A stretch of 64,000 bases of DNA from an uncultured Acidobacteriota bacterium (GTDB lineage Bacteria > Acidobacteriota > Blastocatellia > RBC074), in contig CAWCKY010000003.1 of NCBI GenBank assembly GCA_963796275.1, forward strand, positions 192,001 through 256,000, given 5' to 3'. The notes beneath the pieces were generated by a model that had not been told where the DNA came from, made no database searches, and saw only the letters and a program-made list of their open reading frames with translations. A program made the position numbers and the translations under genes. Numbering within the stretch: position 1 is the first letter of the stretch; each line of letters starts with the position of its first letter. This document shows, piece after piece, positions 5,850 through 37,154 of this stretch.

Positions 5850-5879
5850 GCTTAAGAGCCTGCTTTGAAATGATTTACG

Positions 5880-17989: not shown

Positions 17990-18073
17990 GGGGACGTGGC
18001 GGAATTGGTAGACGCGCAGGTCTCAAAAACCTGTGTCCGAAAGGACGTGTGGGTTCGATTCCCACCATCCCCA
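17990..18073 (+). tRNA. tRNA-Leu(CAA), CCA not encoded
   Basis: GGGGACG acceptor, D arm GGCGGAATTGGTAGACGC, anticodon arm CAGGT-CTCAAAA-ACCTG, long variable arm GTCCGAAAGGAC, T arm GTGGGTTCGATTCCCAC. Confidence 0.96.
18018..18073 (+). repeat. attL (3' 56 nt of tRNA-Leu)
   Basis: AGGTCTCAAAAACCTG...CCCACCATCCCCA identical to 37278-37333. Confidence 0.95.
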
Positions 18074-18144
18074 CTAGCGTCTTGATCGATATCCATAATC
18101 AAATCACTACTTTGGAAACTCAGCCTAATCATATAGTAATGTCC

Positions 18145-18164
18145 GGTACACATTTGGGTACACA
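18145..18164 (+). promoter_or_regulatory. Putative integrase arm-type sites, left
   Basis: GGTACACA-TTTG-GGTACACA; same pair near attR. Confidence 0.7.
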
Positions 18165-18178
18165 CCGAACACATCCTT

Positions 18179-18469
18179 TCAAGATTTTCGAGACTTATTA
18201 GAGAGATTCTCTCCCTTCTTCGAAGACTTCTTGGAGGTCTTAGATTCTGACTCCTTAGCTTTGCCTCTCTTGCCCTGACTCTTCTTCGGGTCCCAATCCT
18301 CGAAATCTTCAACTCTCTCTTTAGGAACGAACCATACAGTGATGTTGCCGAAGGGTTGAGATATTGCACCTTTCACCTTGCCCTGCCTCAGCCAACGAAT
18401 GACGGTGTTGTATGGTCTGTCTATCTTCTCAGCAAATTCCGTTGAAGTCATAAATCTGTCTGTCTCCAT
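18179..18469 (-). CDS. MerR-like/HTH_17 DNA-binding protein (excisionase or regulator)
   Basis: FMTSTEFAEKIDRPYNTVIRWLRQGKVKG..WFVP; next to attL. Confidence 0.75.
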   Translation of the reverse strand: METDRFMTSTEFAEKIDRPYNTVIRWLRQGKVKGAISQPFGNITVWFVPKERVEDFEDWDPKKSQGKRGKAKESESKTSKKSSKKGENLSNKSRKS

Positions 18470-18482
18470 TCTTGGAATTTAT

Positions 18483-18599
18483 AAGTGATCGATCACTTTT
18501 TCAATACTACAGGAGAGCAGATATCCCAGTCAATAAAAAGTGATCTATGATCTAGCAGTTTTTTGTTGACTCAATAAACTGATATGGATACTATCACTT
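18483..18599. promoter_or_regulatory. Divergent promoter pair with palindromic operator
   Basis: Palindrome AAGTGATCGATCACTT (18483-18498), half-sites at 18538 and 18593; TTGACT-17-TACTAT rightward and TTGACT-18-TAGTAT leftward. Confidence 0.65.
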
Positions 18600-18629
18600 A
18601 GATGTCAATCACAGAGGAGACCAAGACCT

Positions 18630-18953
18630 ATGACACTAAACACAATCAAACTCACAGAAGTAGTCACCAAAGCTAAAAGAACAATTCAGAACAACATATC
18701 TCTGTCTAGGATTGAAAAGGCAGTCTGGAACCGGTCTATCACAAAAGCTGAGGAAGTTCTTCTCTCAAATCCCTTCATATATCTCCAGGATGATGGGGAC
18801 GTTCTGATGCTCTCCACCTCTTCCAACCAGCTCTATGTCATCAATGGGAAGTGCATCGATGAGAAGGGCCATTCCTGTAAGGGATATTCAATGACAGGTG
18901 TCTGCTATCACCGGACAGTCAAACGGCTCCTGGAACGGTATCAACAAGCTTAG
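18630..18953 (+). CDS. SWIM-like zinc-finger protein
   Basis: C...C.....CYH pattern (KCIDEKGHSCKGYSMTGVCYHR); GAGGAG RBS; GC hairpin downstream at ~18976-19000. Confidence 0.6.
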   Translation: MTLNTIKLTEVVTKAKRTIQNNISLSRIEKAVWNRSITKAEEVLLSNPFIYLQDDGDVLMLSTSSNQLYVINGKCIDEKGHSCKGYSMTGVCYHRTVKRLLERYQQA

Positions 18954-19021
18954 ACAGATGGAGATGTCCCGGCCTCGAATCTGGGGCCGGGATTTGTCGT
19001 CTGTAGGAAGGAGATCGAGAG

Positions 19022-19230
19022 ATGAACACCCCCCTATCTATACCTCAACTACTATCCACCTGAAGCAGCTCCCTGATGACAGTTGGAAGTGGGGTTACAA
19101 CTCCTCCCTTCAGAGAGGTGTGGTCCTCTGGGGTCGGGACAGCTTCGAGACAGAGGCAGAGGCTCTGGAGGATGCTCAAAGGGCCTTCCCTCATTCAAGG
19201 TTGAAGATCGAAAGAGAGGAGACCATATGA
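19022..19230 (+). CDS. Small hypothetical protein, probably split by an indel in a C run near 19030
   Basis: AGGAG RBS and ATG19022 are out of frame with the downstream WKWGY...FETEAEALEDA frame. Confidence 0.4.
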
Positions 19231-19532
19231 ATTCTCCTGATCAATTCATCACCATCGGAGGGAAACGTTACAGGAAGCCTAGACCTATGATCAGGCCCAG
19301 GGAAGAGCAAGATAGGCTCGATGATATCGGCCTCCAACTTCATGAAGTCCTTCACAAAACAGCCTCTCTCCTGTCTCAGCTCGAAGGATGGGGAAGGGAT
19401 CAGAGATATTCATACAGCATCCCACAGGCCCTTTTTGAACTATTGGGCCGGACAGATGAAGGGGCCTCTGTAGTGGCTTCGAAGGCATTCCTAGAGACCC
19501 TAGGCTATAGAGTGGAGGAGATCAAAAAATGA
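19227..19532 (+). CDS. Hypothetical protein
   Basis: GAGGAG RBS; ATGA coupling on both sides. Confidence 0.65.
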   Translation: MNSPDQFITIGGKRYRKPRPMIRPREEQDRLDDIGLQLHEVLHKTASLLSQLEGWGRDQRYSYSIPQALFELLGRTDEGASVVASKAFLETLGYRVEEIKK

Positions 19533-20332
19533 AGAGACGATTTCTAAGTGAAAGATGGCAGATGGCCTTAGTAGGTCTCGGACTCTGGTTACTCCTGGCC
19601 TTCTGGTCTGTCAGAGCCTTTGTCAGACATATACAGAGTCTGGGTGAATCTGACTCCTTTGATTGGATAGGAGCCACAGCGGGAGAGTTTGCATTATTGG
19701 CCTTCATCCTCTGGCATTGCTTCTCCGTTCATATCAATGTCAGGAGATGGTCTCTCATCTTCGCATTTGTCCTCGGGGCTGTGATTCTCGTTCATTCCGG
19801 GGCATTGAGAGGAATCAGAGAGGCCACCGTGAGACAGGATCAGACGGTGACACAGTTGAAGGATTCATTGACTCAGATGAGCAAAGAACAGATGGAAGCT
19901 GTCAAAGGTGCTAGTGATGAGGAGTTGAACCCTATCTCTCGCAGATCAGCAGACAGAGCAGCAGCTCAGGCAAAGAAAGACATCGCTACTACAGCTCAGG
20001 GGAAAGTTGCAGAGGAGATCAAAGCAGGAACGGAGAAAGTCAAATCATCATCGATCCTTCCAAAGTGGTATCTCGATGGATGGAGTTATTCTGTCATCTT
20101 CGCTCTGGCATCAGCGATGGTGACTGTGATTTTCTTTATGATGATGAACATCGAGGATATAGACAGGAACTTTGACAATATCCCTGACAGACTTCAGACC
20201 ACTACACCTGGCCAATCTACCAGAAGCTTTACCCCTATCTATCATTCACCTATTGAACAAAAGGCTTCCAGACCTGGAGTAGTCAGAGGGAATGGGATTG
20301 ATAAACCTGGAGGCAATCAATCTCACTCCTGA
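19529..20332 (+). CDS. 4-TM membrane protein with central coiled coil
   Basis: Three N-terminal hydrophobic helices, coiled coil, fourth TM, DIDRNFDNIPD acidic loop. Confidence 0.75.
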   Translation: MKRRFLSERWQMALVGLGLWLLLAFWSVRAFVRHIQSLGESDSFDWIGATAGEFALLAFILWHCFSVHINVRRWSLIFAFVLGAVILVHSGALRGIREATVRQDQTVTQLKDSLTQMSKEQMEAVKGASDEELNPISRRSADRAAAQAKKDIATTAQGKVAEEIKAGTEKVKSSSILPKWYLDGWSYSVIFALASAMVTVIFFMMMNIEDIDRNFDNIPDRLQTTTPGQSTRSFTPIYHSPIEQKASRPGVVRGNGIDKPGGNQSHS

Positions 20333-20819
20333 ACCTGTCCTCACAGCGAATCGGGAGAGACAGGATGGGGGTATGGATTCGCAACGGGAGGCAACTACCG
20401 GAAATGAGGTTGCTTTTCCTCCTGTTACTTCCGTAGTAAAACCACCATCTACTTCCGAAGTAAAACCACAGGCAAAGGGGGGATTCACTTCTGAATTTAC
20501 TTCCGAAGTAAAAGAGCCACAAAGGGAGGAATTTACTTCCGAAGTACAACGATCACAACATGTTGACCTATTTGAGCTTAGCTCACTTAAGGAGAATCTA
20601 TTTTGGAGGCCGGTAAAATTCGTCAGAAAGAAGCATTACCCCAAGGTAGTTCCAGACGGATGTGCCTGGAAACAGGATGGAGGGGGATTCACCCTGAGCA
20701 GACAGAGACCAACTAAGTATCTAGGATATTTTCGCAGAGATGTGATCTCAACTTTGGAGAAGAAATATGGCAGGAAAACGAAACGTACAAGAAAAGATAG
20801 ATCTCGAAGGACTACCTAA
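20292..20819 (+). CDS. Hypothetical protein with TSEV repeats
   Basis: 175-aa ORF overlapping both neighbours; repeats encoded by a TACTTCCGAAGTA motif. Confidence 0.55.
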   Translation: MGLINLEAINLTPEPVLTANRERQDGGMDSQREATTGNEVAFPPVTSVVKPPSTSEVKPQAKGGFTSEFTSEVKEPQREEFTSEVQRSQHVDLFELSSLKENLFWRPVKFVRKKHYPKVVPDGCAWKQDGGGFTLSRQRPTKYLGYFRRDVISTLEKKYGRKTKRTRKDRSRRTT

Positions 20820-21060
20820 AGAGACTGTAGCAGCTGTGGTGATAGCTCAGATGTATCAGATACAAGCTATTGCCAACAATCTACCTAACGAAGGTGATAA
20901 GCATCTGCTCTATGTGGAAAGTAACATAGTGCTCGATCTACTCCAGGGATATACAACCCCTGATGCTGTGAAGGCCATCCCTGAGATACAGGCTATTTTA
21001 GAGAAAGGAGAAGAAGGTGTCTCCCTCACCCATAGACGAAAAGAGCCAGATCGAAAATGA
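20767..21060 (+). CDS. Hypothetical protein
   Basis: GGAGA RBS; 97 aa. Confidence 0.6.
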   Translation: MAGKRNVQEKIDLEGLPKETVAAVVIAQMYQIQAIANNLPNEGDKHLLYVESNIVLDLLQGYTTPDAVKAIPEIQAILEKGEEGVSLTHRRKEPDRK

Positions 21061-21333
21061 CCTGGCTCTCTTGTGTTAGATTTCAGGGGTAACCCCAATG
21101 CCTACCCCTCAACGTTGGTCATATGTTTCTATGGGATGTCTCCTTCCCCTGTCATTGCCATGTACGATCTCCTGGCTACTTTGTTCTGACTTTTTTCCAA
21201 CTTTTTTCGTTATGGTGACCATATCCGAAATGTTGAACATGGATCATAGGGAGTATAGAATGACGCCCACAATCAACCGATATCATCGGATGCCACTGGT
21301 CGTAGTCAGACCACTACTCATCCAAGGAGAGGT

Positions 21334-21603
21334 ATGGCCTTAACAAAAGAACAACAAGATGCCTTGCTTTTAGCTTTTCGACAGAGCTGGTCAGGAAGAC
21401 AGTGCCCCATATGCCAGGCAGACAGTTGGGAAGTCTCAGACAGCATATTCGGCCTACCAGAATTTAGTCATGGACTTCTCTCAGGAAGAGGAGGGGCCTT
21501 TTATCCAGTTGTGCCGGTAAACTGCAACAACTGTGGTTATGTTATCTTTTTCAGTGCCATTAAATTAGGACTCTTTGGCGAGCCTCCACAAATAAGAGGA
21601 TAA
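21334..21603 (+). CDS. Zinc-ribbon protein
   Basis: CPIC...CNNCGY; AGGAGAGG RBS. Confidence 0.75.
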   Translation: MALTKEQQDALLLAFRQSWSGRQCPICQADSWEVSDSIFGLPEFSHGLLSGRGGAFYPVVPVNCNNCGYVIFFSAIKLGLFGEPPQIRG

Positions 21604-21606
21604 AGC

Positions 21607-22056
21607 ATGCCACAGACGCCAATTAAATTCACAAACCAAAATTACCTCTTGCCTCCTAAAGAACAACCTGTCTATCCGATTGAAGTAAGAAACCTGGAGC
21701 GTCTGGAGAAGATGATCAAAAGAATTGATCAGCAAGGTGGTTTCTATCAAAACTTGGGGTTTGGCTCAGCAGGTGTAGCGACAGGTGCTTTGACTTCTTT
21801 GATTTCGTTAAATTACGCTCAAGGAGTCTCAGTAACGATCTTGGTAATTAGCTGGGGACTCCTTTTTGCCTCATTCGCTGTAGCAGTCTTCGGATTCATA
21901 GCCAGTACCCGGGAGCGTCAACAACTTCGAGTCTCCAAGGAGGATTTATTGGCTGAGGTGCAATGGATCAAAGAGAGTGTTTACGCCCCTGAAACTGAGA
22001 CGACTGTTGCCTCTACCTCCTCTGACATAGGGCATCGAAAAGGCTCTCAGGATTGA
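21607..22056 (+). CDS. 2-TM membrane protein
   Basis: Two hydrophobic helices; 3 bp after the Zn-ribbon gene; GAGGA RBS. Confidence 0.7.
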   Translation: MPQTPIKFTNQNYLLPPKEQPVYPIEVRNLERLEKMIKRIDQQGGFYQNLGFGSAGVATGALTSLISLNYAQGVSVTILVISWGLLFASFAVAVFGFIASTRERQQLRVSKEDLLAEVQWIKESVYAPETETTVASTSSDIGHRKGSQD

Positions 22057-22476
22057 GTCTCACTGATGCTTGCCCTTCACATCCTTCGTTTTTATTTAAA
22101 CTGGCTATCCTTCCTGCGATATCTTCTGTCTCAACGATTCGAAAAGGGCAGATGGACTGAGCTTCTCATCAGCCTCTCCCTCATGTTCTTCATCGATGAT
22201 CTCAACTAGCCATCGCCACTTGATCAGTTCATCTTCTGTTACTTCTCTATTTTCAGGTTTCATAACTCAATTCTAGCATCTTTGTCATGTCCCCTTCGAG
22301 TTGTCTCAGGGGTAGGGGTGGGGGTATGTGGGAGGGATTTTGTCTCCAGGGGAATTTTTTTGTTTTTCTTCCTTTCGTTGCAGCAAACGTTGAAGGCTGA
22401 TCATGGTGTGGGTAGAATGCACCTGCTTCAGCAGTACTCAGACAGAAGTCAGCCCTTATCGGAGGTGAATTGAAAG

Positions 22477-23190
22477 ATGCTTGAACCGGGGAGTTGGACG
22501 CAATTGATAGCAGCTATCGCAACTCTACTAGCCGTAATAGTCGCTTTGATTAAAGAGCGAATCATATCTTGGTGGTTTCCTCCTAAGCTGACCATGAAGG
22601 CTCGACAGCATCCACCTGATATCGATCATATCCCGTTCAGGTATCCAATGCGTGGCACTCCTCCAGGCTTTCCACCTGTCTATCTGGAGGCAGACTGCTA
22701 CTTCCTACGTCTATGGGTTCAGAATGATGGGAAGTCGAGAGCTGAGAAGGTGCAAGTCTTCGTTTCGGAGATTCTTCGGGAAAGGGCTGGTGAGTTTATC
22801 CCTATGAGTTCATTTATTCCCATGAATCTACGTTGGGGGTTTGGGAGTGAAACTCCAACCCATGCTGAAGTGTTTGCAGATGGGATTTCCCCTGGCATGG
22901 GTGTGCACTGCAATCTCGCACAAATCATCGACTTCAGTAAAAGAAAGGAAGTGGGAGATGACCATCCTGACGCTAAACCAGAAGAGACAGTTATACGTTT
23001 AACAACTGAGATGCACCCAACGAACCGTTGCAATGTTCTCATACCGGGAACTTATAGACTGAAACTCAAGATTGCAGGGTCCAACTGTAGACCCAAAGAC
23101 TATACGGTCCAAATCACACTCTTTGGCAAATGGTTTCAGGAAAGGGAAAAGATGCTTCAAGACGGAGTACTGATGAAAATCATGGACTGA
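22477..23190 (+). CDS. N-terminally anchored hypothetical protein with beta-rich domain
   Basis: GGAGGTG RBS; TM, then RLWVQNDG..RAEKVQV, PGTYRLKLKI. Confidence 0.7.
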   Translation: MLEPGSWTQLIAAIATLLAVIVALIKERIISWWFPPKLTMKARQHPPDIDHIPFRYPMRGTPPGFPPVYLEADCYFLRLWVQNDGKSRAEKVQVFVSEILRERAGEFIPMSSFIPMNLRWGFGSETPTHAEVFADGISPGMGVHCNLAQIIDFSKRKEVGDDHPDAKPEETVIRLTTEMHPTNRCNVLIPGTYRLKLKIAGSNCRPKDYTVQITLFGKWFQEREKMLQDGVLMKIMD

Positions 23191-23235
23191 CCTCAGTTGA
23201 GGGAGAGAGTTTTAGGGAAGAGATAAGCTGAGATA

Positions 23236-23913
23236 ATGAATTATCTTCGAGACATGGATTTTTGGCTAAAAGCTGGCCCCACACTGGCAGCAGTGATTGT
23301 TCCATTCTTAACGTATCTCTGGCTTGCACGAAGTATGTCGAAGGCTATCGAGCGTTACAAGATAGACCTTAGCAAAGAGCTAGAACATTACAAGGCAGAT
23401 ATCAGTAAAGAGCTGGAGATTCATAAGGCTCAGTTACAGGCCAGCTTTCAGACCAGATTCTATGAGTATCAGACTAGATATGGGTGGCTTCATCAGAGGA
23501 CGGCAGAGGCCATTGAGAAGCTATATATGCTGGCAGCAAGGGTTCAGAGTGATTTGCAGACAGGGGTAACTGATAGTCATGAGGTACGTAACCAGACGGA
23601 GGATGAGCATTACAAAGAGGCTGAGGCTCACCTTCAGGATATGATTAACTACTTTGATGAAAAAAGAATCTACTTTGATAAGGAGACCTCTAGTGCAGTT
23701 TTAAGTATAGTGGAGATGACGAATGCTGTTTATGATCGGCATAGGGGTGGTCTTCAGCATTTTAAGGCACCCCCTGAGTTGGAAGAAGCACTAAAACAGA
23801 ATGCTGCCTCATTGATAGATGCTGTGGGTGTTTTGATGGGTTTTCTCGATTACAGATTCAGGAAGCTTCTCGAAGCTGAGATGCCAAACCACCAAGGTAA
23901 AGAGAGGTTTTGA
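23236..23913 (+). CDS. Membrane-anchored helical/coiled-coil hypothetical protein
   Basis: TM, repeated IERYKIDLSKELEHYKADISKEL, RIYF motif. Confidence 0.7.
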   Translation: MNYLRDMDFWLKAGPTLAAVIVPFLTYLWLARSMSKAIERYKIDLSKELEHYKADISKELEIHKAQLQASFQTRFYEYQTRYGWLHQRTAEAIEKLYMLAARVQSDLQTGVTDSHEVRNQTEDEHYKEAEAHLQDMINYFDEKRIYFDKETSSAVLSIVEMTNAVYDRHRGGLQHFKAPPELEEALKQNAASLIDAVGVLMGFLDYRFRKLLEAEMPNHQGKERF

Positions 23914-24346
23914 CATATTCCTTCTTGAGTCGTATACCACTGATTCCAAGGATATCGGGCCTGGAATACGTACGACACTGGTTGAATTTGATTGCAAGCG
24001 ATACCTATATAGCTTGGCATGGTTGCTTCTCTCACTAGAGGTCATAGGAATATGGCTGATGATATATGTTGGAGCGGGCCGATATGGGGCAGCCTTGATC
24101 TTCGCATTGGTTTGGACCTTGCCTAATGCGTTTTACCTCTCTAGGGAGGAAAGAAATTGGTTGAGGAGGTCAACGTAGAGGGAGAGGGCTCACCCAGTGA
24201 TACTGTTCGGTAAAAATCAGAATCCGAATCTGATAGAGAACAAGATAAGGAAATGGCTTAATTACCTACCAGAGACGTAGAAACAAAACTGCTATGTCCC
24301 AGAATACTAATTATGTATCTTCACTTATGAATGAAAGATTGAGTCT

Positions 24347-25256
24347 ATGAAAGAATTTGCAGATTTACTCCAAGCAGTTGCTTCAGTCTTTTGGCCCATC
24401 CTTGTGTTCATCATAGTCATATGGTTCAAAAAAGAGATTAAAGAAATTCTGAAGCGTATTAAGCGGGGAAAGATATTAGGTCAAGAACTTGAGCTTGAAG
24501 AAGACTTGAACAAGTTGAATAGGACTGCTGTTGCCTCGGCATCTGAAGTTGCTTCATTACCTCCGTTAACTGACCCAGACAAAGTGCAAGATAGTAATCT
24601 TAATCGTAATATCAGGAGAGCTGCTTCGTTAAGCGAAGTTCTTAACGTTTTAGATTTAGCAGAATCATCCCCTAAAGCCGCTTTAGTGACTTTGGCAATT
24701 GAGATTGAGAAGGAGTTGCGGGAGATAATATTTAGTCAAGGGCAAGTAGGTAACCCATACAATTTTACAATGAGGAATGCAATTGACATTCTTAGAAAAA
24801 GAGGTCCATTACCTGACTCTACTATTCTGGCACTGGATAGCTTCATTAGAATACGTAATAAAATTGTTCATGCCGGGTGAGGTACCCTGTGATGAGATTT
24901 TAAGAACGATTGATTCAGGAGCTTTAATTCTTTTGACTTTGAAGTCTATACCTCGCCTAAAAGTATATGTTTATCACCCTAACGTGACAGTTTATTCAGA
25001 TAAAGAATGCACAAAGCCTATAGATGATGCTCGTGGTATTATTCTTGAGATGACCGATTCTAAGGGTGAAGACAAGCATATTGGTATATATCCGAGCACC
25101 AAAAAACATTTTGTAAAAGGCAAACAGGTAGCTTGGGAATGGGATAATAAAAACAGATGGGGATTGTCATGGTATCGTGATCCCGATACTAACGAAATAA
25201 AATTAGCGTGGGGTGAATCATTCGAATTTGTAGGTCGAAATGTTGAGGATACGTAG
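24347..25256 (+). CDS. TM-HEPN (RxxxxH) protein with Trp-rich C-terminal domain, one frameshift near 24875
   Basis: TM, E..LRE, RNKIVH; removing one G of GCCGGGTGA joins ORFs 24347-24880 and 24777-25256. Confidence 0.65.
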
Positions 25257-25276
25257 TCTATCAATTGGACATCGGT

Positions 25277-25768
25277 TCATCTGAAAACCTTGCTCCAGTT
25301 TATAGCTCTCCAAGGCAGGTCTTCCTCTATTTTATTTAAAAGTTCGTATAAGACCTCCTTCTGTTTCATACCAAATTGGCTATCAATGTAATCTGCTATC
25401 CCAAAGAATAGATTCTTATTTCTCACACCACAGAGATCAGCTATGTGCCGGAGGCTGTACTCGACATCAAGGCCGGTGACTGGCCCTTGAAGTGATTGCT
25501 CCCTGAGTTTTAGAAAATTTAGACGCCACCTGACTTGTTCGGCAGCACCATGCTTCATTCTGTTGAAAGTCTTTTCATTCAGCATATCCATTACACCTCT
25601 CGGGAACCCTTTAAGAGTTCCCGGATCGTGAATATCCCATTGATCAATCTGCTTCAGCTTTTGGACAAGCTGATAACAACGAATGCAGAGTCCTTTTGCC
25701 CTGTGACGGTATCGTTCCGTCCCACACTCCTGGCATTTTTCATATTTGCTTGACCATCTTTTTTCCAT
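25277..25768 (-). CDS. Hypothetical protein with N-terminal Cys/His zinc finger
   Basis: CQECG...H.AKGLCIRCY; ATG25768 with GAGGAG RBS. Confidence 0.7.
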   Translation of the reverse strand: MEKRWSSKYEKCQECGTERYRHRAKGLCIRCYQLVQKLKQIDQWDIHDPGTLKGFPRGVMDMLNEKTFNRMKHGAAEQVRWRLNFLKLREQSLQGPVTGLDVEYSLRHIADLCGVRNKNLFFGIADYIDSQFGMKQKEVLYELLNKIEEDLPWRAINWSKVFR

Positions 25769-25779
25769 GGTGGCTCCTC

Positions 25780-26252
25780 TGTAGACGATCACTGAGAAGT
25801 GAAGGAATTTGAACAGAAGGATTCTCGACGAACGTCTCACTCGTAGATCAGCCGGAACGCTCCAAGAACGATCATGACCACTCCACCGATGATCATAATC
25901 AATCGGGATCGGAGTGTCAGTGGATATCTCAGTGTCGATCCAGGCATCGCTCCAGTGCCATGGGTCGCAAATATTCCCATTACTATGAAGAATACGCCGA
26001 AACCAATCAACGCCCAGTGTTCTTTCATGGCAACCCCTCCAACTGAAGGTTAAGTACAGTCCTCCACCAAAGGCTAAATTACAAGATAACGCTAACCCTT
26101 GTTGGGTATTATCGCAGCTTCCCTCCTGTAGGGTCATTGAAAGAGGCGTGACCGGCTTGATGATCGAAATTGGGAAAAAGGGAACGCCGGGTTCTGTTCA
26201 AATTTATTCACTTCGCTGTTCAAATTCTTTCACTTTCTGACGATCGCCGACA
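25780..26252. mobile_element. 473-bp non-autonomous mini-transposon carrying one gene
   Basis: TGT...ACA ends, 37-bp imperfect TIR, 20-bp AAGTGAANRAATTTGAACAG repeats (1 left, 2 right), TCCTC duplicated at 25775-25779 and 26253-26257. Confidence 0.85.
25837..26028 (-). CDS. 63-aa 2-TM membrane protein (mini-transposon cargo)
   Basis: GGAGGGG RBS; two hydrophobic helices. Confidence 0.65.
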   Translation of the reverse strand: MKEHWALIGFGVFFIVMGIFATHGTGAMPGSTLRYPLTLRSRLIMIIGGVVMIVLGAFRLIYE

Positions 26253-26365
26253 TCCTCCGACCTACATCAGTTGTGTTCTTATATTAAGTAGTCGAGTTGA
26301 ATATTGATCATTGATTATGTCGAGAGTAGAATCCCCACGTAACACCATAGGGAGGTTTAATTCAG

Positions 26366-26743
26366 ATGAATATCTCATCAAGTAGATCGTCAACTGAAAT
26401 TTATCATTCGGACAGTTATGCAAGTACACTTTATGACAGAATCCAAACAAATTTTGAGACCATTAGGGCAGATCTAAAGGAAGATGAAGAACTATTCGCA
26501 TATTGCACCACAACAGTTGGTGAGGTGATCAAGATCACAGGTTTCGGCTTTCAAAATCCATACTTAATGATCATCTATGGGGAAGACCAAGAAATGAACC
26601 CTTGTCAGATTCTTACCCATGCCTACTCGTTTCAGATCACTATGAAGGTGCTAAAGATACGAGATGAAACCCAAAATCAGAGAAGGGTCATTGGATTTCT
26701 TGGAGATATAGGCAAAAAATCGGACCCGGAATCCGATCAATAA
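26366..26743 (+). CDS. DUF6173-like protein
   Basis: L.EDEEL...GF.NP.L...G.D.....Q...H...RRVIGF pattern; GGAGGT RBS. Confidence 0.65.
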   Translation: MNISSSRSSTEIYHSDSYASTLYDRIQTNFETIRADLKEDEELFAYCTTTVGEVIKITGFGFQNPYLMIIYGEDQEMNPCQILTHAYSFQITMKVLKIRDETQNQRRVIGFLGDIGKKSDPESDQ

Positions 26744-27056
26744 CAATAGAATGAAGAGGCTTAAACGAAAAGGCTGATCTATAGCTATGCAAGATAGATA
26801 TCTCAAGTGGGAGATCATTTTCGCTCACACTCCTGTTACTGTTAACGACCCTAACTAAAAAATCTCTCCTTCCCTATTCCCGGATCCATTGTAGGATGGC
26901 TCTATTTGGATCTAGGAGGATCCAGGATGGATTTTTCCCTTCGATGGATCCCCCCTCCTGTGGGTGAGAGTGAAAAAGCCTCTCCAGGGATACCCAGAAG
27001 TGCTAAAAGTGAGGAATTAAGGACTCTGGTCAATCAGAAAACAATAGGAGGTGCTC

Positions 27057-27461
27057 TTATAAGTCCCCATAACTCTCAAGGATGGTTTGTTTGATCCTGT
27101 ATCTCTCATTGTGAAATCTATGCCTGGTTCTACACCTATCGCACAACTTGAAGACCTCTCCCCTCTCCCGGCCACATTCTGCACATAACCCTGCTCGTAG
27201 ACGGGATTGTCTGAGAGCTTTCTCCCTTTTAGACTCCCTCCTACGTCTCCTCTCTACGATCTCCTGGGATAGGATTTTCCTTCTCATCCTCTTCGACTTC
27301 GGGGGGCTGCCTCTCCTTTGGTCTCGGAAGATTCGTTGATGAAAGCGTTCGATCATATCGGATGTCGAGATAGGCTTCTCGATGATGACGTTATCTCCTA
27401 CTTGCCTGACCTTCACTCGCTCGATCTTCGTTTGCCTGGCCTCTGGTTGCCTGCCCTTCAC
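27057..27461 (-). CDS. Basic protein with C-terminal zinc finger
   Basis: GLCAECG...LCDRC; Arg-rich. Confidence 0.55.
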   Translation of the reverse strand: MKGRQPEARQTKIERVKVRQVGDNVIIEKPISTSDMIERFHQRIFRDQRRGSPPKSKRMRRKILSQEIVERRRRRESKREKALRQSRLRAGLCAECGRERGEVFKLCDRCRTRHRFHNERYRIKQTILESYGDL

Positions 27462-27583
27462 GATTCATCTCCCTTTTCGAGCTTATTTGGTACGGGGAAT
27501 GTATCCATTCAATTCTACCCTTCAACTGGAGGGTCTATATGCCTTCCCTCCTCATCTCTTGTGTGTGCGTGGAGACCTCTCCA

Positions 27584-28300
27584 TCAACAATTCCTAGCAG
27601 CCCTGTAACCTGCCTTCTCAGCCTCAGCTCTAGTTCGGAAGTATATCTTGTTACGCTCTGCTATTCGATGGTAAGAAGGACATCCCGGCCAATGATAGAT
27701 CATGCTGTTCTTGTTGCCGATGATTTTTTCGTCAACCTCCTGTGTTGGTTTGGGCTTTTGTGTAGCCTTGCTACCACCCTTTCTATAATCCCAAGGTGCA
27801 ATTGGCGACTTGTCGGCCCACAGTCCTGTTTTAGAAAGTCTGGCGTAGTTTTCGAGAACTTCATATTCTTTGGCTAAATCAAAGGCTAGTTCACTTGCAT
27901 ACTCTTTGTAAAACCAAGCCATACCACTAGTTAGTTGTTGAGAGGATGCACCTTGAATAGTACCCGTTTGATCAAAGTATAGTACCTCTCCCACAAGTCG
28001 CCCACCTCTGTCAGTTTTCTTTGAATGGACTGTTACATTTCTAGTGAAAACTTTGTCTGAAAGAGATTGCTTTGCTGCTTGGCCGAATGGTTGCCCAAGT
28101 TCAGGAGCATCTATTCCATCAAGGCGAATCTTGTGCTGCTGGTTATCTTTGTCGAGGATAGTGATAGTATCACCATCTGTAACGCCCACTACCTTGCCAG
28201 TGATCTTGCTTTCCCGTGCTATGGATATCAGACTGAAACTAAAGATCAATGAGAGTGCTATTCCCAGAATCTGTAACATTCTTTTATTCTTTTGATTCAT
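27584..28300 (-). CDS. Thermonuclease (SNase) with C-terminal Ada-like metal-binding domain, exported
   Basis: V.DGDTI, IRLDGIDAPE, GMAW, GLW..PWDYR; GNKNSMIYH.PGC...AEKAGYRAARNC. Confidence 0.9.
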   Translation of the reverse strand: MNQKNKRMLQILGIALSLIFSFSLISIARESKITGKVVGVTDGDTITILDKDNQQHKIRLDGIDAPELGQPFGQAAKQSLSDKVFTRNVTVHSKKTDRGGRLVGEVLYFDQTGTIQGASSQQLTSGMAWFYKEYASELAFDLAKEYEVLENYARLSKTGLWADKSPIAPWDYRKGGSKATQKPKPTQEVDEKIIGNKNSMIYHWPGCPSYHRIAERNKIYFRTRAEAEKAGYRAARNC

Positions 28301-28303
28301 ACC

Positions 28304-28564
28304 TTACTCCTTTGCAATTTCAACCGGCCCATCTATCGAGACTGATCCATTTACATCTACTTGACCATCCTGCACAAATACGACAGGTATAGATGAGACA
28401 ACAGCCTTTCTTGCTTCGTTATTTTTTGCATCTTTGATATCTCCAACTGTCGGCACCCTCTGTGATCTGATATCACGCAATATAGTCACTGCAGTCAGTA
28501 GCAATAAAATAACTGCTGCTTTATACACAATGTCTACTATTTTTAATGCATTCTCTCGATTCAT
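28304..28564 (-). CDS. Small membrane-anchored hypothetical protein
   Basis: One TM; coupled to the nuclease gene. Confidence 0.6.
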   Translation of the reverse strand: MNRENALKIVDIVYKAAVILLLLTAVTILRDIRSQRVPTVGDIKDAKNNEARKAVVSSIPVVFVQDGQVDVNGSVSIDGPVEIAKE

Positions 28565-28745
28565 ACCCCTACCCCTTGTGTAACGTAAAATTTAAAGTGA
28601 GGGATATATCCATCTCCCCACTTCTGGAAGAGCTATGCGACTAAACCATTTCTAATTCAGTTCATCTCCTCATCTGATCGCCCGAGCTTCTCCGTTAATG
28701 ATCGTGAGTCCCCATAGAGACAAATTTGCCTTCAATATCTCCAGC

Positions 28746-30364
28746 TCAATCGGGGAGATTCTCGCCTGTCCTCTCATAGGTCCTTTTGGCAGTCAGTAGG
28801 GAAGGAGAATTTATCCCCATCCTTTGTGTCATCTCGATGATGCTTAAGGCTGTGTGTGTGGCCTGATCGAGATCATTTTGAGATTCCTCTTCCTCCTCCA
28901 GCTCCTGGGTAGATTCCAGGTTTGCCCTTTCTATTTCAGCTATGCCCTCAATGTATGAAGAGGGCATAGCTGACTTTTTTTCCTTATAAATATATTTATT
29001 ATCTATAGTTTCTGAGCTTTGCCCATTGTCCATAGAAGGGCAAAGCGGATGGCAAAGCTGAACCACAGAATTATTAGAATCTCCCCCCTCCAGGTTTGAC
29101 CTTTCCAGTTTCAGGTTTGACCTTTTGTCTATTAAGGGCAAAGCTGGGAAGGTATGAGAAATAATAAGGTTAGGCTCTATTTTGTCTGAGCTTTGACCTT
29201 TGCCCCAAGGAAAGGCAAAGCTGGATTCATCAGGGCAAAGCTGAGATTCCCTCCCTGAATTATTAGAATCAGAGGAGACAATTTCTGTCTCCTCCATCTT
29301 CTCAGCCTTATCTCCCCGGCCCTTCTCAGGCAGGCTCCAATAGGTCCTAATGTCTTTGCCCTGGCCTTCCCATCTGATTAGCACACCTAGCTTGCCTCTT
29401 GCAGTCGTTAGTTGCTTCTCACTGATGCCCTCCCTTTTTGCAACTTCCTTGATATCAGATGAAGGCACTTCCCTCTTCTCCAACATTACTAGCAAAAGGG
29501 TAGTTGCATCAGCCTTCTCCGATCCCTCATCCTCATTCGGAATCTGATAAGCAAGGGCTTTCTCAAGACTGAACTGAGGGGGGACATCAGTCCATTTCAA
29601 TACCCCAACTCCATCATCGGTATCTTGAATCACATACCCAATGGGCCTAAGCTCATTACATATATTGCCCCCATTGTAGTGTAGGGCTCTCTCCTCCTGG
29701 TTATCGGGGTTAGTAACTGCAATGAATGCAGAACGTACTGCTGCTATGAAGTCGATAGATCCCTGGCCTCTGTACATAGCCTTCGAGCTATTACCCTTGT
29801 TGAGATGTCGAACAACTACAACAGCACAGTTGTATTTTGCTGCCAGTATTTGGAGTCTTTGCATCGGCTGTCTGACCTTGTTTGCCTGATTCATATCGAG
29901 ACTTCCCCCGACATACAAAGAAATTGGATCAAAGATGACCAGATCAGGTTTGACTTCAGAGATAGCTTTTTCGATGGAGAGGATGTTGACCTCATCCAGG
30001 GTTACATAGGTATCGATGATTCCTATGTTGTCCATATTGCCTTTAGATGCCTGAGCCGAGGTTTGATAACCTTTGAGCTATTGTTCTCCAATGAGAAGAT
30101 CAAAACCTTCCCCGGCCCTCTTTCAGTCCATCCAGGCAAAAGGTCATACCTGCCATTCGATACTGCCGAAGCCCAAGAGAAGGTGATCCAACTTTTTCCT
30201 GCCTTTGGGTCTCCGTCAATAATTGTTACTTCCCCAATAGGTACTCCGGGCATAAGCCAATCAAATTTTTCCTCCTCGATATCCTTCATCCATTTGATTG
30301 AGAGAGGTTTTGCATCGGTCTTTGTCTGAAATTTTGGGGTAGGTTTGGGAATTTTATTTGGCAT
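28746..30364 (-). CDS. AAA_25/RepA-like RecA-fold helicase, frameshifted near 30030
   Basis: Walker A GDPKAGKS (ORF 30023-30364); Walker B LVIFDP and HLNK..YRGQGS....AAVRS (ORF 28746-30035). Confidence 0.85.
28921..29270. repeat. Iteron-like cluster (GGGCAAAGCTG-type) around an AT-rich tract; putative origin
   Basis: About a dozen full or partial copies in both orientations; 14-bp inverted repeat 28936-28973; AT-rich 28975-29011. Confidence 0.7.
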
Positions 30365-30705
30365 AACTCACCCCCTCCTTGATTTCAAACTCCCCCAGAT
30401 TTGGATGGCTCTGATCATCAATATCCATAGGGGTGGAGAGATCATCACTGGCTGTGCTATAATCCCCCCAGTTTAGATTTTCATTTATTGTTGGCAGCTT
30501 CGGAATCATCATCTCGGGGCTGCCTTTTCGTTTGTCCATACAATTTCTCCTTCTCGAAATTATTTTTAAATGGATGGCCCCATCAGCCAACCTTTTTAAG
30601 CTACTGCAAAATTCGATCAAAAGTCTCGATTGCTCTCTTCCCTTGTGCCAGAGCCTTCTCGATTTCATTCCTCAATTGTCTGTCGCTCATATGATCCCTC
30701 CTTTT

Positions 30706-30885
30706 TCAGGCTGCCCTCTTCTCACACCTCGACAGGAAGTCTTGAAGGTGCCTCTCGCTATACTTGACCTTGCCACAGACCTTGAAAAATCCTATGGCTC
30801 CTTTCTTTCTCAAACGATAGAGGGTGATTCGGTTTTTGAATCCCAAAATCACAGTTGCCTCTCGCTCTGTAAAAGTTTTCTCCAC
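30706..30885 (-). CDS. 59-aa AlpA/excisionase-like HTH protein (not in ORF track)
   Basis: GAGGAGG RBS and GTG; MEKTFTEREATVILGFKNRITLYRLRKKGAIGFFKVCGKVKYSERHLQDFLSRCEKRAA. Confidence 0.8.
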   Translation of the reverse strand: MEKTFTEREATVILGFKNRITLYRLRKKGAIGFFKVCGKVKYSERHLQDFLSRCEKRAA

Positions 30886-31287
30886 TTCTTCCTCCTCTCT
30901 AAAAGTATCTCTTGACTAAAAGTAACATCTAAGCTACTGTCCCTGCTACACTTTATACACCTTAAAGATACTGTGTGTTTCTGTCAAGTTACCCAATGTT
31001 ACATCTTTAATCTGATTTAATGACCTCCAGAAGCCCTATAAACAAAGCCTCTCACGATGGTAGGCTACTCCCAAAAATAAAAAGAGGGAGCCAGACAAAT
31101 CCAGCTCTCTCAAAAATGACAGATGGCTAAATAACAGAGAGACAGGGGGATGAGAGATGCATCAAGAGGAAAGCTGAGCAGGAAAAGAGAGAAGTCAAGG
31201 GAGGAGTTGGAGGACCTTTGGAGACAAAATATACTTAAGGCATTAGGGGCGAGCCTTCTCGATCCTCTGTAGGCACACACATAGATA

Positions 31288-32049
31288 TTATCTAGACTCT
31301 TTTCTTCGACTCATGAATTGAATGAGGTCCCGGACAGCTTGGTCTGCTAATGCGTCTGTCGCAACCTCAGCAGCTCGAATGCGTTTGACTTCAACACCCT
31401 CCACTGTGAGAGGAACGAGTCGCTTGTCAGCTTCGGCAGGCAGTTCTTTGTGAAAAGTATCGCCATCAACTTCGACAACGAAGGTCAAGCCCTTATATAC
31501 AATAATGAAGTCTGGCTCTAAGCGATTGTATCTATTGCCGATCCGTACAAACACAGGAAGTGGTGCGACAGCAAGTTGAGCACGGGTCATAGCCTCAAAC
31601 AATGTTATCTCTGCCTTCGACCGAAAGAGTAGCCCACGGTGCTGCTGAGAAGCAATGTTGTCGCTTCTAACTCTTCCCTGGTTGGTGACACCTTCACCTT
31701 TGACAAAGCGTATCGCTTCTTCTCTCCAAGTTTCAGTTGCTGAACTCACCTTTGGGGAAATCACAACTAACTTGAGGTCATCGTTAGAGGTAGACACGAA
31801 GAAGGGCCTTGCTACATCCTTTATTGAATCCTCAGTCGAACTACGTTCCTCTTCGGAGAGAGCGTAGAAGATGTGGACGGGCAATGAGATGTATAGAGTC
31901 CAATAGGCAACATCAAAATCATTTTCGTAGAATGAGAACCAGCAATCTCCTTCAACAACTGCCGTAATCGCCCTAGCATCTCCCCTCATCTTCAGCCCTT
32001 CAGTGAGGGATGCAAGAAAATCTTCGATTGGGAATGGCCCCTCATTCAT
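31288..32049 (-). CDS. Vsr/DUF559-like PD-(D/E)XK nuclease with uncharacterised N-terminal domain
   Basis: FRSKAE...EPDF......VVEVDG..FH. Confidence 0.7.
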   Translation of the reverse strand: MNEGPFPIEDFLASLTEGLKMRGDARAITAVVEGDCWFSFYENDFDVAYWTLYISLPVHIFYALSEEERSSTEDSIKDVARPFFVSTSNDDLKLVVISPKVSSATETWREEAIRFVKGEGVTNQGRVRSDNIASQQHRGLLFRSKAEITLFEAMTRAQLAVAPLPVFVRIGNRYNRLEPDFIIVYKGLTFVVEVDGDTFHKELPAEADKRLVPLTVEGVEVKRIRAAEVATDALADQAVRDLIQFMSRRKESR

Positions 32050-32203
32050 AATCATATCCTCTCGATTAACATGCTGAATCCGGCTCTTAGGGAGGCTCAA
32101 CTACGTGAATAATCCCTCTTCGATCTGAAACCCTCGAACCTGGATTCCAGATTTAGAAGACCTATATCTTATCCAGTTAGGCTATAGGGCCTTCGTTATA
32201 ATA

Positions 32204-32986
32204 TTAAAAACACTTGTTGATCTTACAGAAGTCTTTTGTATCGTTGATCACTTGTTTAGAGAATTTAGTTATTACCTTTCTGTTATTCTCATATATAGTG
32301 AATCTAGGATAACAAACTCTATAAATCATCCCACCTTCTTTAGTTGCTACTTTTTCAAAATTATAGTTTTCCCCACCTGATGAAGAGCCTGAATATATAG
32401 TCGGTCTTATACAATATGGAAAGTAAGTGCACTTCTGTTTATCTCCCTCTCCTTCACACCTTTGATCTACTATAGGGATATTCACCCAGTTATCTCCATC
32501 AGTAAGGGACATTGTAAATATCAATTTAATGGGCTTATCTAGTGATGGGTCCGTAGTTGGAGTAACAGATGGAGTTGATGTCGGAATGGGAGATGATGAT
32601 GTTGTTGTTGGGGGTTCAGAGGATTTAGGAGATATTGCTACTATGAAGACTACAAAGCCAAAAATAAGCAAAGAAACAATAAGCAAACCTCTAAATCCAT
32701 AATCTTTAGTACTCTCACTCTTAGATGAAGCTTTAGGAGAAGGCTGTGGTGACGATTGAGGTGGCTGTGGAGGTGGAGGTGGAGGTGGAGGTGGAGTTCT
32801 ATTTCCCCTCTCTGCCTGATCTCCCATTGCCACCTCATATGCCTCATTCAGGAGTTTCATCATCAGCTCTGATCCACCTGAATCTGGATGACACCTCTTT
32901 GCTAAATCTTTATATCGACCTTTGATTTGTTCCTTGCTGGCTGAAACGGGAAGTCCCAAATATTCAAACGCTTCAGATATCTTCAT
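32204..32986 (-). CDS. J-domain (DnaJ-like) membrane protein
   Basis: YLGL...IKGRYKDLAKRCHPD..G...LLNEAYE; poly-Pro linker, TM, Cys-containing C-terminal domain. Confidence 0.85.
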   Translation of the reverse strand: MKISEAFEYLGLPVSASKEQIKGRYKDLAKRCHPDSGGSELMMKLLNEAYEVAMGDQAERGNRTPPPPPPPPPQPPQSSPQPSPKASSKSESTKDYGFRGLLIVSLLIFGFVVFIVAISPKSSEPPTTTSSSPIPTSTPSVTPTTDPSLDKPIKLIFTMSLTDGDNWVNIPIVDQRCEGEGDKQKCTYFPYCIRPTIYSGSSSGGENYNFEKVATKEGGMIYRVCYPRFTIYENNRKVITKFSKQVINDTKDFCKINKCF

Positions 32987-33513
32987 AAGTCCACCTATCT
33001 CTTCCTATCCACCCATCCATGACTTCTAGACAGCCAAAAGTGTCTCTTTCAGTTTCGTATAGAAAGTGTATCTAAGGCTCATGGGGGAGAATGTCCTTCT
33101 TGATCAGATTTAACCATTTGAGGGACCCGTTCTGAGGAGGTCCTGGGCCAGATTCTACGAGATCCCTGACTAATGGCCAAGAGTTTTTGGATCAGTAGGA
33201 GGGACCCAATCCCCATCTTCAATCTCCCCAACAGGCGAGGACTGACGACAAGCATCAGAGAGAGGAAATCTCTCACAAATCATTGCATCACCCCTGGACT
33301 CGCTCTATACTCTGCCACGTTCGGCTATTCGCAGTCATAAATCATCCTTTATCACACAGGAGAGAGCACAAAATGTAGGCTCGGTAGAAATTTGCCATAG
33401 ACCTAAAAGGAACAACCAATCGCTCGTACAGAACCACACAAGTTTGATCTATATGTCTCAGCGAAGTAGAACTTCATCAAAGCTGTCTAAGTCGCTATGC
33501 AGTTCTAGGGAGG

Positions 33514-33813
33514 GTGCAAGGTCGTATGCCGAAAAACGAGGATGCAGACGTAGAGCTGGCAAAGAAAATTGCACAGGTTGCACAAATTAGACGCAAAGCG
33601 AAGTTGGATTCTATCAAGGATTACATAGGCTTCGTTGTTAGCCAATTGTTCGGCTTGATTTCCCTGATAGCTGGGATAATTGGGGCATTTGTTCCATCTA
33701 TACTACCTTTTAAGATCAGTAATCCGACAACATATATTGGGATAGGATTAGGGGTATTAGTAGGAAAAAGTATAGTCACAACCATTGCTAAAGTGGCAAA
33801 CGTCTTAAAATAA
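33514..33813 (+). CDS. Small 2-TM membrane protein
   Basis: Two hydrophobic helices; TAATG coupling to the next gene. Confidence 0.65.
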   Translation: MQGRMPKNEDADVELAKKIAQVAQIRRKAKLDSIKDYIGFVVSQLFGLISLIAGIIGAFVPSILPFKISNPTTYIGIGLGVLVGKSIVTTIAKVANVLK

Positions 33814-34868
33814 TGATCAACATTACTTTTTCGTTATTAGCCTTGAGCATAGTGGGAGTAGTCATCCTCCTTATCTGCAAGGGATTAGGCCGTCCGATAA
33901 ACAGTGGTTATCTGCTTGCCCGTGGATTCTTTCTTATTTTTGGGATGGGTATTTTACTGTTAGGTATATGCTTTCATTTGAAGTCATGGCCGTATGCCAC
34001 ATTTTTCAGTGCCCTTTTCGGTGTGCTTGGTGCTCAAATCGGTCTCTGGTCTATAGGTATAAGTGGAGAAATACTTGGCAATCGGCCTCAAACAGACGAG
34101 TTCGGAGAATTCAGCCTCGGTCTGAATACGATTGGTCTGTCTAACTCTGCTCTGCAGTTTGCCAATATTGTTCTTGTTACCATTATGTCTGTGAGCCTCT
34201 TGTATTTTTACTCTCCTTGGTTAGCAGAGTTTGTATTTAACAAGAAACTCGACTCAATCGGCTTTATACAACAAGTCCATGCTGAGACTAAGCTCCCAGA
34301 AAAACCTACATGGGTGACAGAAACAGTAAAATCCACCGACAGGTTCGGCAAGGAGATAGAGGTTGAGATAGGGATCCTTTGGGACCCTTATAGATGGGTT
34401 AAAGGAAGTACAGAGGATGTATCAATCGATGATGCTGAAAAAGTTAAATTCTCCATTGGAGATGTCATCAGAAATTTTCAGAACAGTGAGAACAGACCTA
34501 TCATTGCTGTGGGGACTGCATCTCACGAAAATGCTGTGGAGAATCCTGAACAAGAGACTAATCGTGCCCAAGCGAGGGCAGATAGGTTAGTCACATTATG
34601 TGGAGAACATTTTATAAATCTCCCTCACATTTATAGTTTAAATCTTGGGGCATTCAAGACAGACCGAAGTTATTCGGTCTTTTCAGCCTCAGAACGTAGA
34701 GTTATTTTACTGGTCATAAAGAAAGGTGAAGATAGCTTAGATTTAACATCTGGGGTAAAAAACGCTCTGATTAAAGCTAAAGTGGAGCAGGGTTTTATTT
34801 TCGATGCAAGAGACTATTCCTTGTTTGATACTACCAGGTTTCAAGTGGTGCAAAGGCTTAATTTTTAG
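33813..34868 (+). CDS. Multi-TM protein with divergent OmpA/MotB-like C-terminal domain
   Basis: About 4 TMs, then AVGTASHE...NRAQARADRL...ERRVIL. Confidence 0.6.
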   Translation: MINITFSLLALSIVGVVILLICKGLGRPINSGYLLARGFFLIFGMGILLLGICFHLKSWPYATFFSALFGVLGAQIGLWSIGISGEILGNRPQTDEFGEFSLGLNTIGLSNSALQFANIVLVTIMSVSLLYFYSPWLAEFVFNKKLDSIGFIQQVHAETKLPEKPTWVTETVKSTDRFGKEIEVEIGILWDPYRWVKGSTEDVSIDDAEKVKFSIGDVIRNFQNSENRPIIAVGTASHENAVENPEQETNRAQARADRLVTLCGEHFINLPHIYSLNLGAFKTDRSYSVFSASERRVILLVIKKGEDSLDLTSGVKNALIKAKVEQGFIFDARDYSLFDTTRFQVVQRLNF

Positions 34869-34935
34869 AAGATGTAGCCTCACATCTCAAAGACCTCATA
34901 TAGAATACACCGATGTGGCAGAGGACTAACCGTTT

Positions 34936-37136: not shown

Positions 37137-37154
37137 ATTCAAGTCCTCCATCTG

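Follow-up and report, generated by a model that had tools for sequence, protein, structure and literature searches.

A 473-bp element with one small membrane-protein gene in an acidobacterial genomic island lacks a transposase and very probably derives from an IS21-family insertion sequence

What kind of element consists of little more than one small membrane-protein gene between inverted repeats, and did it reach its present site in that form? The question is raised by a stretch of 64,000 nucleotides from an uncultured Acidobacteriota bacterium (C3:192001-256000 of a genome of 9.46 Mb in 7 contigs, 53–55% G+C and 94.7% complete), hereafter the window, whose own numbering is used below. At 25780–26252 of the window lies a unit of 473 bp that has the tips of a transposable element and no gene for a transposase. 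We conclude that it is very probably a derivative of an IS21-family insertion sequence (IS), made up of a 39-bp left tip, a 117-bp non-coding right end and one passenger gene. Its structure would be that of an internally deleted transporter IS (tIS), the term used in the available text of PMC3129680 and PMC9330008 for an IS with passenger genes besides its transposase. It also resembles a mobile insertion cassette (MIC), the class described in the available portions of PMC3129680 and PMC3281130 as IS ends around a passenger, with no transposase and with a cognate IS acting in trans. The parts of the element and the bases that abut it are as follows.

25775–25779, no strand: left copy of the target-site duplication, TCCTC, by direct reading; on the minus strand it reads GAGGA, the Shine-Dalgarno (SD) sequence now serving the downstream gene.
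25780–25818, plus strand: left arm (left inverted repeat, IRL), 39 bp, with tip 5'-TG and a single 20-nt repeat resembling an IstA site at 25797–25816; 38/39 identical to loci L082 and L139.
25819–26135, minus strand: cargo, 317 bp, with no BLAST homology to IS21-family genes or arms among the fetched loci and the source genome.
25837–26028, minus strand: passenger gene, 63 aa, with two predicted membrane helices, from the list of open reading frames (ORFs) and hydropathy.
26034–26040, minus strand: SD sequence of the passenger, GGAGGGG, 5 nt before the ATG, by direct reading.
26093–26140, minus strand: motif of 45–48 nt with a sigma-70-like promoter, from a consensus scan; conserved in other loci.
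26136–26252, plus strand: right arm (right inverted repeat block, IRR), 117 bp, with tip CA-3' and the 20-nt repeats R2 (26194–26213) and R1 (26216–26235); homologous to L151 and others.
26253–26257, no strand: right copy of the target-site duplication, TCCTC, by direct reading; identical to 25775–25779.

The terminal dinucleotides, TG at 25780–25781 and CA at 26251–26252, close an imperfect inverted repeat of 37 nt (25780–25816 and 26216–26252, 76% complementary) that takes in the single left copy of the 20-nt repeat and the outer of the two right copies, the latter being spaced 22 nt start to start. An exact duplication of 5 bp abuts both tips. Target duplications of the IS21 family range from 4 to 8 bp. 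The end repeats are not random, because the 20-mer, with up to 3 mismatches allowed, occurs three times in the 64-kb window, always within the element, against an expectation of 0.01, and none of 100 shuffles reached three. Ends of this build recur at 7 public genome loci and at 80 metagenome loci. Inside the element there is one ORF longer than 60 aa, the 63-aa membrane gene, and no Pfam transposase domain; tblastn queries with IstA, IstB, ORF4 and the zinc-finger ORF of related elements gave no match in the locus that holds the element (L004). Likewise, a scan of the 34 ORFs between 12143 and 38358 gave no transposase domain, and Rfam, applied to 20000–32000 at E up to 1, gave no matches. 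A preliminary description made from the letters of the window had already recognized the 37-bp inverted repeat with a second 20-bp copy on the right, the exact TCCTC duplication on both flanks, and a 63-aa ORF with two transmembrane segments and its own ribosome-binding site (RBS); the coordinates above agree on all of these points, down to GGAGGGG 5 nt before the ATG and the two hydrophobic segments. That description also took the ORF to be the sole content of the element, which holds in so far as there is a single sizeable ORF and fails in that the right-hand 117 bp are DNA of an IS right end, itself conserved, and that a motif resembling a promoter is located between this block and the ORF.

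To what do the ends belong? The left 39 bp are 97% identical to L082 and L139 and match L119 at 37 of 39 positions, these being three loci with different flanks, and in all three the left end is followed by a zinc-finger ORF, with IstA next in L139 and in L082 (HTH_32 and rve domains in the latter). The right arm matches L151 at 95.8% identity across 118 bp, L120 and L100/L114 at 88%, and L029 at 85%; over window positions 26137–26214 it is also 82% identical to a contig of a genome of the same genus (G001:C72). These right-arm relatives adjoin ORF4/IstB, except for L151, which has the ORF4 tail only, and L114, in whose locus the genes were not seen. The minus strand of G001:C72, from a DNA search of 41 genomes including the source genome, reads through the C-terminus of IstA, IstB and ORF4 to a right end of matching architecture; the remainder of this element comprises an open IstA frame of 493 aa, 81% identical to that of L082, and a left end identical to the window's at 28 of 37 positions. 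Homology of the arms ends at element positions 39 on the left and 357 on the right. Because the homologous autonomous elements encode IstA and IstB, both arms are, on the strength of this homology, IS21-family ends.

The parent clade has four ORFs (a zinc-finger ORF, the DDE transposase IstA, the AAA+ helper IstB and ORF4) and was found in soil metagenomes, in metagenome-assembled genomes (MAGs) of Acidobacteriota and in the one same-genus genome. L022 is a complete IS of this kind; it measures 3467 bp, has a duplication of 7 bp and codes for IstB (PF01695, E 4e-55), IstA (PF22483, E 6e-23), ORF4 and an upstream zinc-finger ORF. Full-length members of the clade have a single left-hand 20-mer, as does the window's element. 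The metagenome scan used a tip-plus-repeat pattern, with partner ends bounded by an ungapped search; the family counts given below rest on 80 of 92 stretches and on 35 unique insertions, the window's element included. A scan of genome contigs for the 20-mer gave 52 loci, seven of them with full tip context and all seven in Acidobacteriota MAGs (the tip is truncated in L032); the other 45 have no terminal TGT-N14 context and were taken, from their flanks alone, as chance or coding matches. Within four relatives of the source genome the 20-mer, at 3 mismatches, matched seven times, and only G001:C72 is an IS end (L012 and L013 were left out of inspection); the four other loci that were read have no IS-end context, L014 being C72 itself. 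Across the order, the left-end motif occurs in 1 of 87 genomes, the source genome alone.

That genome holds a single true relative of the ends, a relic at C6:866735-~867010 (L001 10735-~11010) that is homologous to L082. It consists of a left end, a leader with the subterminal motif ATCATCGCCGCAGG and a hairpin, and the first codons of the zinc-finger ORF, after which unrelated DNA follows; because the left end, the leader and the start of the zinc-finger ORF are all there, the relic indicates that the lineage once hosted a cognate IS. Two further matches were set aside as relatives of the ends: C6:1787013-1787032 (L002 15013-15032), a 19/20 match inside a NIPSNAP coding sequence that was taken as coincidence though about 0.001 would be expected in the genome, and a 22-nt fragment at C3:350556. 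No intact cognate IS was found in the 94.7%-complete assembly, where the other IstB matches are fragments. The four-ORF IS21-family copy at C4:87271-~90700 (L073 2271-~5700) was rejected as a partner, its IstA being split in two frames (L073 3004–3678 and 3347–4486) and its ends dissimilar; a recognisable right inverted repeat was not found in this copy. The element at C3:2400-5050 was rejected too, being an intact IS with unrelated ends. As a separate observation, the locus of the relic also holds a CarboxypepD_reg / outer-membrane beta-barrel gene in pieces (L001 12896–14407), which cover profile positions 32–84 and 655–838 of 838, and this suggests a large internal deletion in that gene.

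The position of the passenger connects the element with full-length relatives. Right-arm homology in L151 and G001:C72 sets in only a few bases from the stop codon of ORF4, and it is between that stop codon and the right block that the nearest complete or almost complete relatives carry their passengers, each time antisense to the IS genes: a 247-aa TPR protein in L100, a Peptidase_M48 protein of about 325 aa in L131 and L029, and a 136-aa protein with a weak match to DUF5412 in L120. The 63-aa gene matches these passengers in both slot and orientation; a transporter IS with a later internal deletion is accordingly the simplest origin. Two observations on these loci may be added. The TPR passenger of L100 is flanked by an exact 18-bp direct repeat (3557–3574 and 4412–4429, 855 bp apart), and a repeat of this type is absent around the passengers of L120 and L131 and around the window's cargo. 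L151, beside its right end (96% identical to the window's), encodes a 1046-aa protein with a caspase domain and DEAD/Helicase_C (3509–6649, plus strand) together with an NYN-domain protein (6796–7464, minus strand), a defence-like pair.

The passenger has homologues among metagenome proteins at 87, 75 and 68% identity; within the order, 3 of the 86 genomes besides the source encode one at E up to 1.7e-10, and a fourth does so only at E 0.009. The homologue in G019 is the C-terminal part of a 125-aa ORF that is chromosomal and lies beside lgt. An alignment of seven sequences of the family has 22 invariant columns. Pfam gave nothing above threshold for the 63-aa protein (DUF3185 at E 0.15), and Protein Atlas gave a best score of 0.89 and no named family. 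To judge from these homologues, the passenger is a real, conserved gene of a predicted two-helix membrane family that is not related to transposition. The cargo as a whole (25819–26135) is single-copy in the source genome, by BLAST against that genome and all fetched loci.

Upstream of the passenger, at the junction of cargo and right arm, a sigma-70-like promoter (26137..26108, minus strand) was picked out by a consensus scan with 9 of 12 positions: ATGACC, a spacer of 18 nt and GATAAT, with TG before the -10 hexamer. This promoter-like motif points into the passenger and on toward the downstream gene, and there is no terminator-like site between the passenger stop codon and the downstream ATG. 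The insertion has shifted the downstream gene by 478 bp from its former upstream region, and read-through from a promoter in the cargo would therefore be a reasonable arrangement; the promoter of the passenger probably reads through the left arm into that gene. The 45–48-nt motif that contains the promoter recurs in two genomes of the same genus and on one soil contig, in unrelated contexts, and may be a shared regulatory or small-RNA element. Its copy in G001:C1 (L011 ~1208-1253) lies upstream of an ORF of about 27 codons with a terminator hairpin, and that in G002:C218 (L007 856–889) has, at a distance of about 140 nt, a transposase gene judged by eye to be IS6-like.

The family includes many members that lack a transposase. 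Twelve elements measure 3.3–4.4 kb, ten of them with IstA and IstB, one (L091/L101, 3354 bp) with a 906-aa M16 peptidase in a unit without IstA/IstB, and one, L151, with a doubtful partner end; the partner ends of L151 (22/37) and L138 (22/37) are both doubtful and were not relied on. [quoted passage not shown] There are two deletion forms, one of 1008 bp that has the zinc-finger ORF only and one of 1967 bp that is without IstB. Two elements of 1126 and 1168 bp, 96% identical and at two sites, carry a BrnT toxin (E 4e-23) with a CopG-type antitoxin (E 2e-32). Apart from these, L032 (1538–3185) has an end like those of the toxin-antitoxin cassettes, which shares 89.6% identity with L034 across ~268 bp and has lost part of its tip. 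Next to it comes a HipA-like gene (HipA_C E 1e-51), which may be another cargo variant, on a contig with no partner end.

How might the window's element have come about? We infer the following order of events. A transporter IS carrying the 63-aa gene would have inserted 6 nt upstream of a zinc-finger gene of the island, by transposition of the IstA/IstB type; cutting at the terminal CA-3' and a 5-bp staggered cut of the target would have produced the TCCTC duplication, which would regenerate the SD sequence of the downstream gene. A single internal deletion, with one limit 39 bp in from the left tip and the other 18 nt past the passenger stop codon, would then have removed the zinc-finger ORF, IstA, IstB and ORF4. 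The outcome would be an orphan in its own genome, with no intact cognate transposase and with the passenger promoter feeding the downstream gene. We give deletion in place, after insertion of the full-length element, a little better than an even chance. That the deletion arose elsewhere and the 473-bp unit was then transposed in trans is the less probable course though one to be taken seriously, and other histories are improbable. The TCCTC duplication is uninformative as to whether the unit itself moved, because a full-length parent decaying in place would leave it equally.

Several observations weigh against this account. A parent transporter IS carrying the 63-aa gene was not found, and a second copy of the 473-bp unit or of its cargo is absent from the source genome and all fetched loci. 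Clean target duplications, of 4–9 bp, accompany 15 of the 35 unique insertions, and 20 of the 35 have none at their called boundaries. The left arm has one recognisable repeat, as against the two per end needed in vitro by the IstA studied in PMC10122671 (available text), and the element is without the subterminal ATCATCGCCGCAGG motif. All 6 small derivatives inspected have this motif ~62–65 nt from their left tip, and related copies were recognized by eye inside L070 and in four left arms, namely those of L082, G001, L022 and the C6 relic. Promoter activity and read-through are, as said above, read from a consensus scan. Lastly, an empty-site allele was not found when the DNA of 25000–27500 was searched in 41 genomes, the zinc-finger protein of the downstream gene in 401, and one soil run. 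The DNA search gave a match of any kind in 5 of the 41 genomes (the source included), and in none of the relatives does it extend over the genes on either side; the zinc-finger homologue in the one other genome of the 401 that has it, 39% identical, lies in a different genomic context. One contig of the soil run crosses the right junction (26221–26371, 146/151 identical), so that the same insertion is present there, and no joint skipping the element was found in that run, whose cover is sparse.

The core of the preliminary description was that the element is an active mobile insertion cassette, that is, that the 473-bp unit itself transposed with IstA and IstB supplied in trans and can do so again. 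The intact TG..CA tips and the exact 5-bp duplication agree with this, as do arms that have diverged by just 3–4% from the nearest full-length ends. Non-autonomous relatives have moved, as the 18 small elements in differing flanks and the two locations of the toxin-antitoxin cassette show, and an IS of the clade that appears to be complete, the one with the 493-aa IstA, occurs in the same genus. The C6 relic, which puts a cognate IS in the past of the lineage, counts in favour as well. Against it stand the single copy, the 39-bp left arm without the ATCATCGCCGCAGG motif, the lack of an intact cognate IS in the assembly, and the need for one event more than decay in place. We consider an active cassette possible, at clearly less than even likelihood, and lean toward a derivative that decayed in place after full-length insertion; the missing ATCATCGCCGCAGG motif argues against present mobility and favours that history without proving it. 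Thus, from the earlier picture of a non-autonomous gene vehicle mobilised in trans, the transposase-less and passenger-bearing unit stands, whereas mobilisation in trans has the single copy and the missing intact partner against it. Two of the searches proposed along with that picture had a positive result, in that relatives with different cargo exist (the BrnT/CopG, M16 peptidase, TPR and Peptidase_M48 elements) and elements with IS21-family transposase genes and homologous ends occur in public loci (L082, L139, G001:C72). Since other elements and transposases thus share the ends, the refuting condition set beforehand does not overturn the picture. The same description left the choice between IS21 and the DDE systems of Tn7, Tn5053 and Mu. 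If the element were a mini-transposon like those of Tn7, Tn5053/Tn402 or Mu, moved by TnsB-, TniA- or MuA-like proteins, it would have the TG..CA tips, 5-bp duplication and asymmetric subterminal repeats that are common to those systems, and IstA is itself structurally akin to TnsB and MuA (PMC10122671, in the available portions). However, every autonomous element found with homologous ends encodes IstA (PF22483/rve) and IstB (PF01695), not TnsABC, TniABQ or MuAB, and the right arm runs into the ORF4 tail in L151 and in the same-genus IS. An origin of this type is extremely unlikely, and only the IS21 half of the earlier choice survives.

It is also worth considering whether the insertion was aimed at an SD sequence, so that the cargo was placed upstream of a host gene with its RBS kept. 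The duplication here is the SD sequence of the downstream gene: on the minus strand GAGGA lies 6 nt before the ATG (25768) of the 163-aa gene, with which the passenger is co-oriented, just as had been described beforehand. Elsewhere in the family, CCTC duplications occur in L070 and L150, that of L150 possibly reading as GAGG 9 nt before an ATG (in a flank only 56 nt long), and the 7-bp duplication of L126 spans the ATG of a 435-aa ORF preceded by AGGAGG. The insertion in L126, however, splits the SD sequence from the ATG, which is the opposite outcome, and the 15 clean duplications have no common sequence. Of these 15, 5 have a tetramer resembling an SD sequence inside the duplication or no more than 3 nt away (4 of 14 without the prompting case), as compared with 15% of random windows from the same loci; moreover, surviving elements would be expected in intergenic positions anyway, and IS21-family insertions made in vitro had, in the available text of PMC10122671, no clear target specificity and some clustering near promoters. 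Targeting of SD sequences is accordingly quite unlikely, and SD proximity in the family is a weak lead. Both expectations of the preliminary description in this regard were disappointed: the table of duplications does not bear out RBS targeting, and an allele with a single TCCTC turned up neither in relatives' DNA, nor among the proteins of the phylum, nor in the soil run.

The surroundings of the element, which the preliminary description had called a satellite-like island, comprise the following features.

25277–25768, minus strand: downstream gene of 163 aa with a CxxC-x13-CxxC pattern, just outside the left arm (ORF list, direct reading).
18018–37333, no strand: host island, of the integrative type, recognized by bounding 56-bp repeats, tRNA-Leu(CAA) and an integrase.

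The island proper, of about 19.3 kb (18074–37333), has 44% G+C as compared with the 53–55% of the genome. Its limits are marked by two identical 56-bp copies of the 3' part of tRNA-Leu(CAA), at 18018–18073 and 37278–37333, the tRNA gene itself lying at 17990–18074, and a tyrosine integrase is encoded at its far end (36009–37163, minus strand). With these boundaries, the integrase and the low G+C, the nesting of the element in an island is confirmed. The downstream CxxC gene is unrelated to the zinc-finger ORF of the IS family. Its homologue in one other genome among the 401 of the phylum (source included) lies in a locus, L174 (G468:C4:1474646-1478119), where short ORFs are split by a repeated element of about 90 nt with a CCTAAC-like core at its start and a GTTAGGG-like core at its end, which looks like an array of integron attC cassettes. 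Another gene of the island, encoding an AAA_25 (RepA/primase-like) protein at 28746–30364 on the minus strand, is split into the overlapping ORFs 30023–30364 and 28746–30035; these match profile positions 7–93 and 133–194, and the gene is probably frameshifted or internally damaged.

What does such an element add? Taken on its own, it is an ordinary IS leftover, a small genomic fossil. What is mildly new is its parentage: an IS21-family clade with two extra ORFs and a fixed passenger slot, which has given rise to MITEs as well as to cassettes with genes. No account of a cassette derived from IS21 turned up in the open-access literature searched (ISfinder lay outside that scope), and MITE and cassette behaviour is usually discussed for IS families other than IS21. 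One can imagine a more ambitious view, in which the clade serves as a gene-cassette vehicle in soil bacteria: genes would be taken up in the antisense slot after the ORF4 stop codon (toxin-antitoxin pair, peptidases and small membrane proteins being the cargo cited), the elements would decay repeatedly into cassettes that land at or beside RBSs, and promoter-bearing passengers would be wired before host genes as new two-gene operons, the window's element being one such event in a mobile island. We regard this view, taken whole, as unlikely. The element nonetheless provides an entry point to an IS21 clade with a fixed passenger slot that spawns MITEs and cassettes in soil bacteria, and a testable case of an IS remnant that may have put a new promoter in place of the old one before a gene of the host island, with the RBS of that gene regenerated.

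It is informative to set the element beside the systems that it resembles, among them MICs, MITEs, solo ends and transporter ISs, all recognised as IS derivatives in the available text of PMC3129680, PMC3281130 and PMC9330008. The IS21-family element IS5376, as the accessible part of PMC10122671 describes it, has a terminal CA, 5-bp repeats and ends with two repeats 23 bp apart. The window's element shares with it the terminal CA-3', direct repeats about 22–23 bp apart (at the right end), a 5-bp duplication and, in its relatives, the order istA-istB; tips, duplication and arms homologous to IstA/IstB elements were all found, as would be expected of an IS21 derivative. As for the arrangement of at least two repeat units per end about 23 bp apart given in the same available text, the right end has two spaced 22 nt apart and the left end one. 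The parent clade differs from IS5376 in its two extra ORFs (the N-terminal zinc-finger ORF and ORF4), its single left 20-mer, a different conserved subterminal motif and duplications of 4–9 bp. The transporter ISs L100, L131/L029 and L120 carry their passengers in the slot and orientation of the 63-aa gene, and the element differs from them in having lost the zinc-finger ORF, IstA, IstB and ORF4.

MICs were first described for the IS231-derived MIC231 of Bacillus cereus. Like the MICs of the cited texts, so far as these are available, the element has IS ends around a passenger, no transposase and a target-site duplication, and its passenger is unrelated to the IS; mobilisation in trans, the remaining mark of that class, was not observed. 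Unlike them, it derives from the two-protein (IstA and IstB) IS21 family, not from a one-gene IS4-type element; it is also single-copy, and its mobility is doubtful given a left arm of 39 bp. It has in common with MITEs, of which those of 251–442 bp from the same IS family are common in soil contigs, that it is short and non-autonomous and has IS-derived ends. A MITE, however, is non-coding in its interior; the gene inside this element is intact and conserved and has expression signals.

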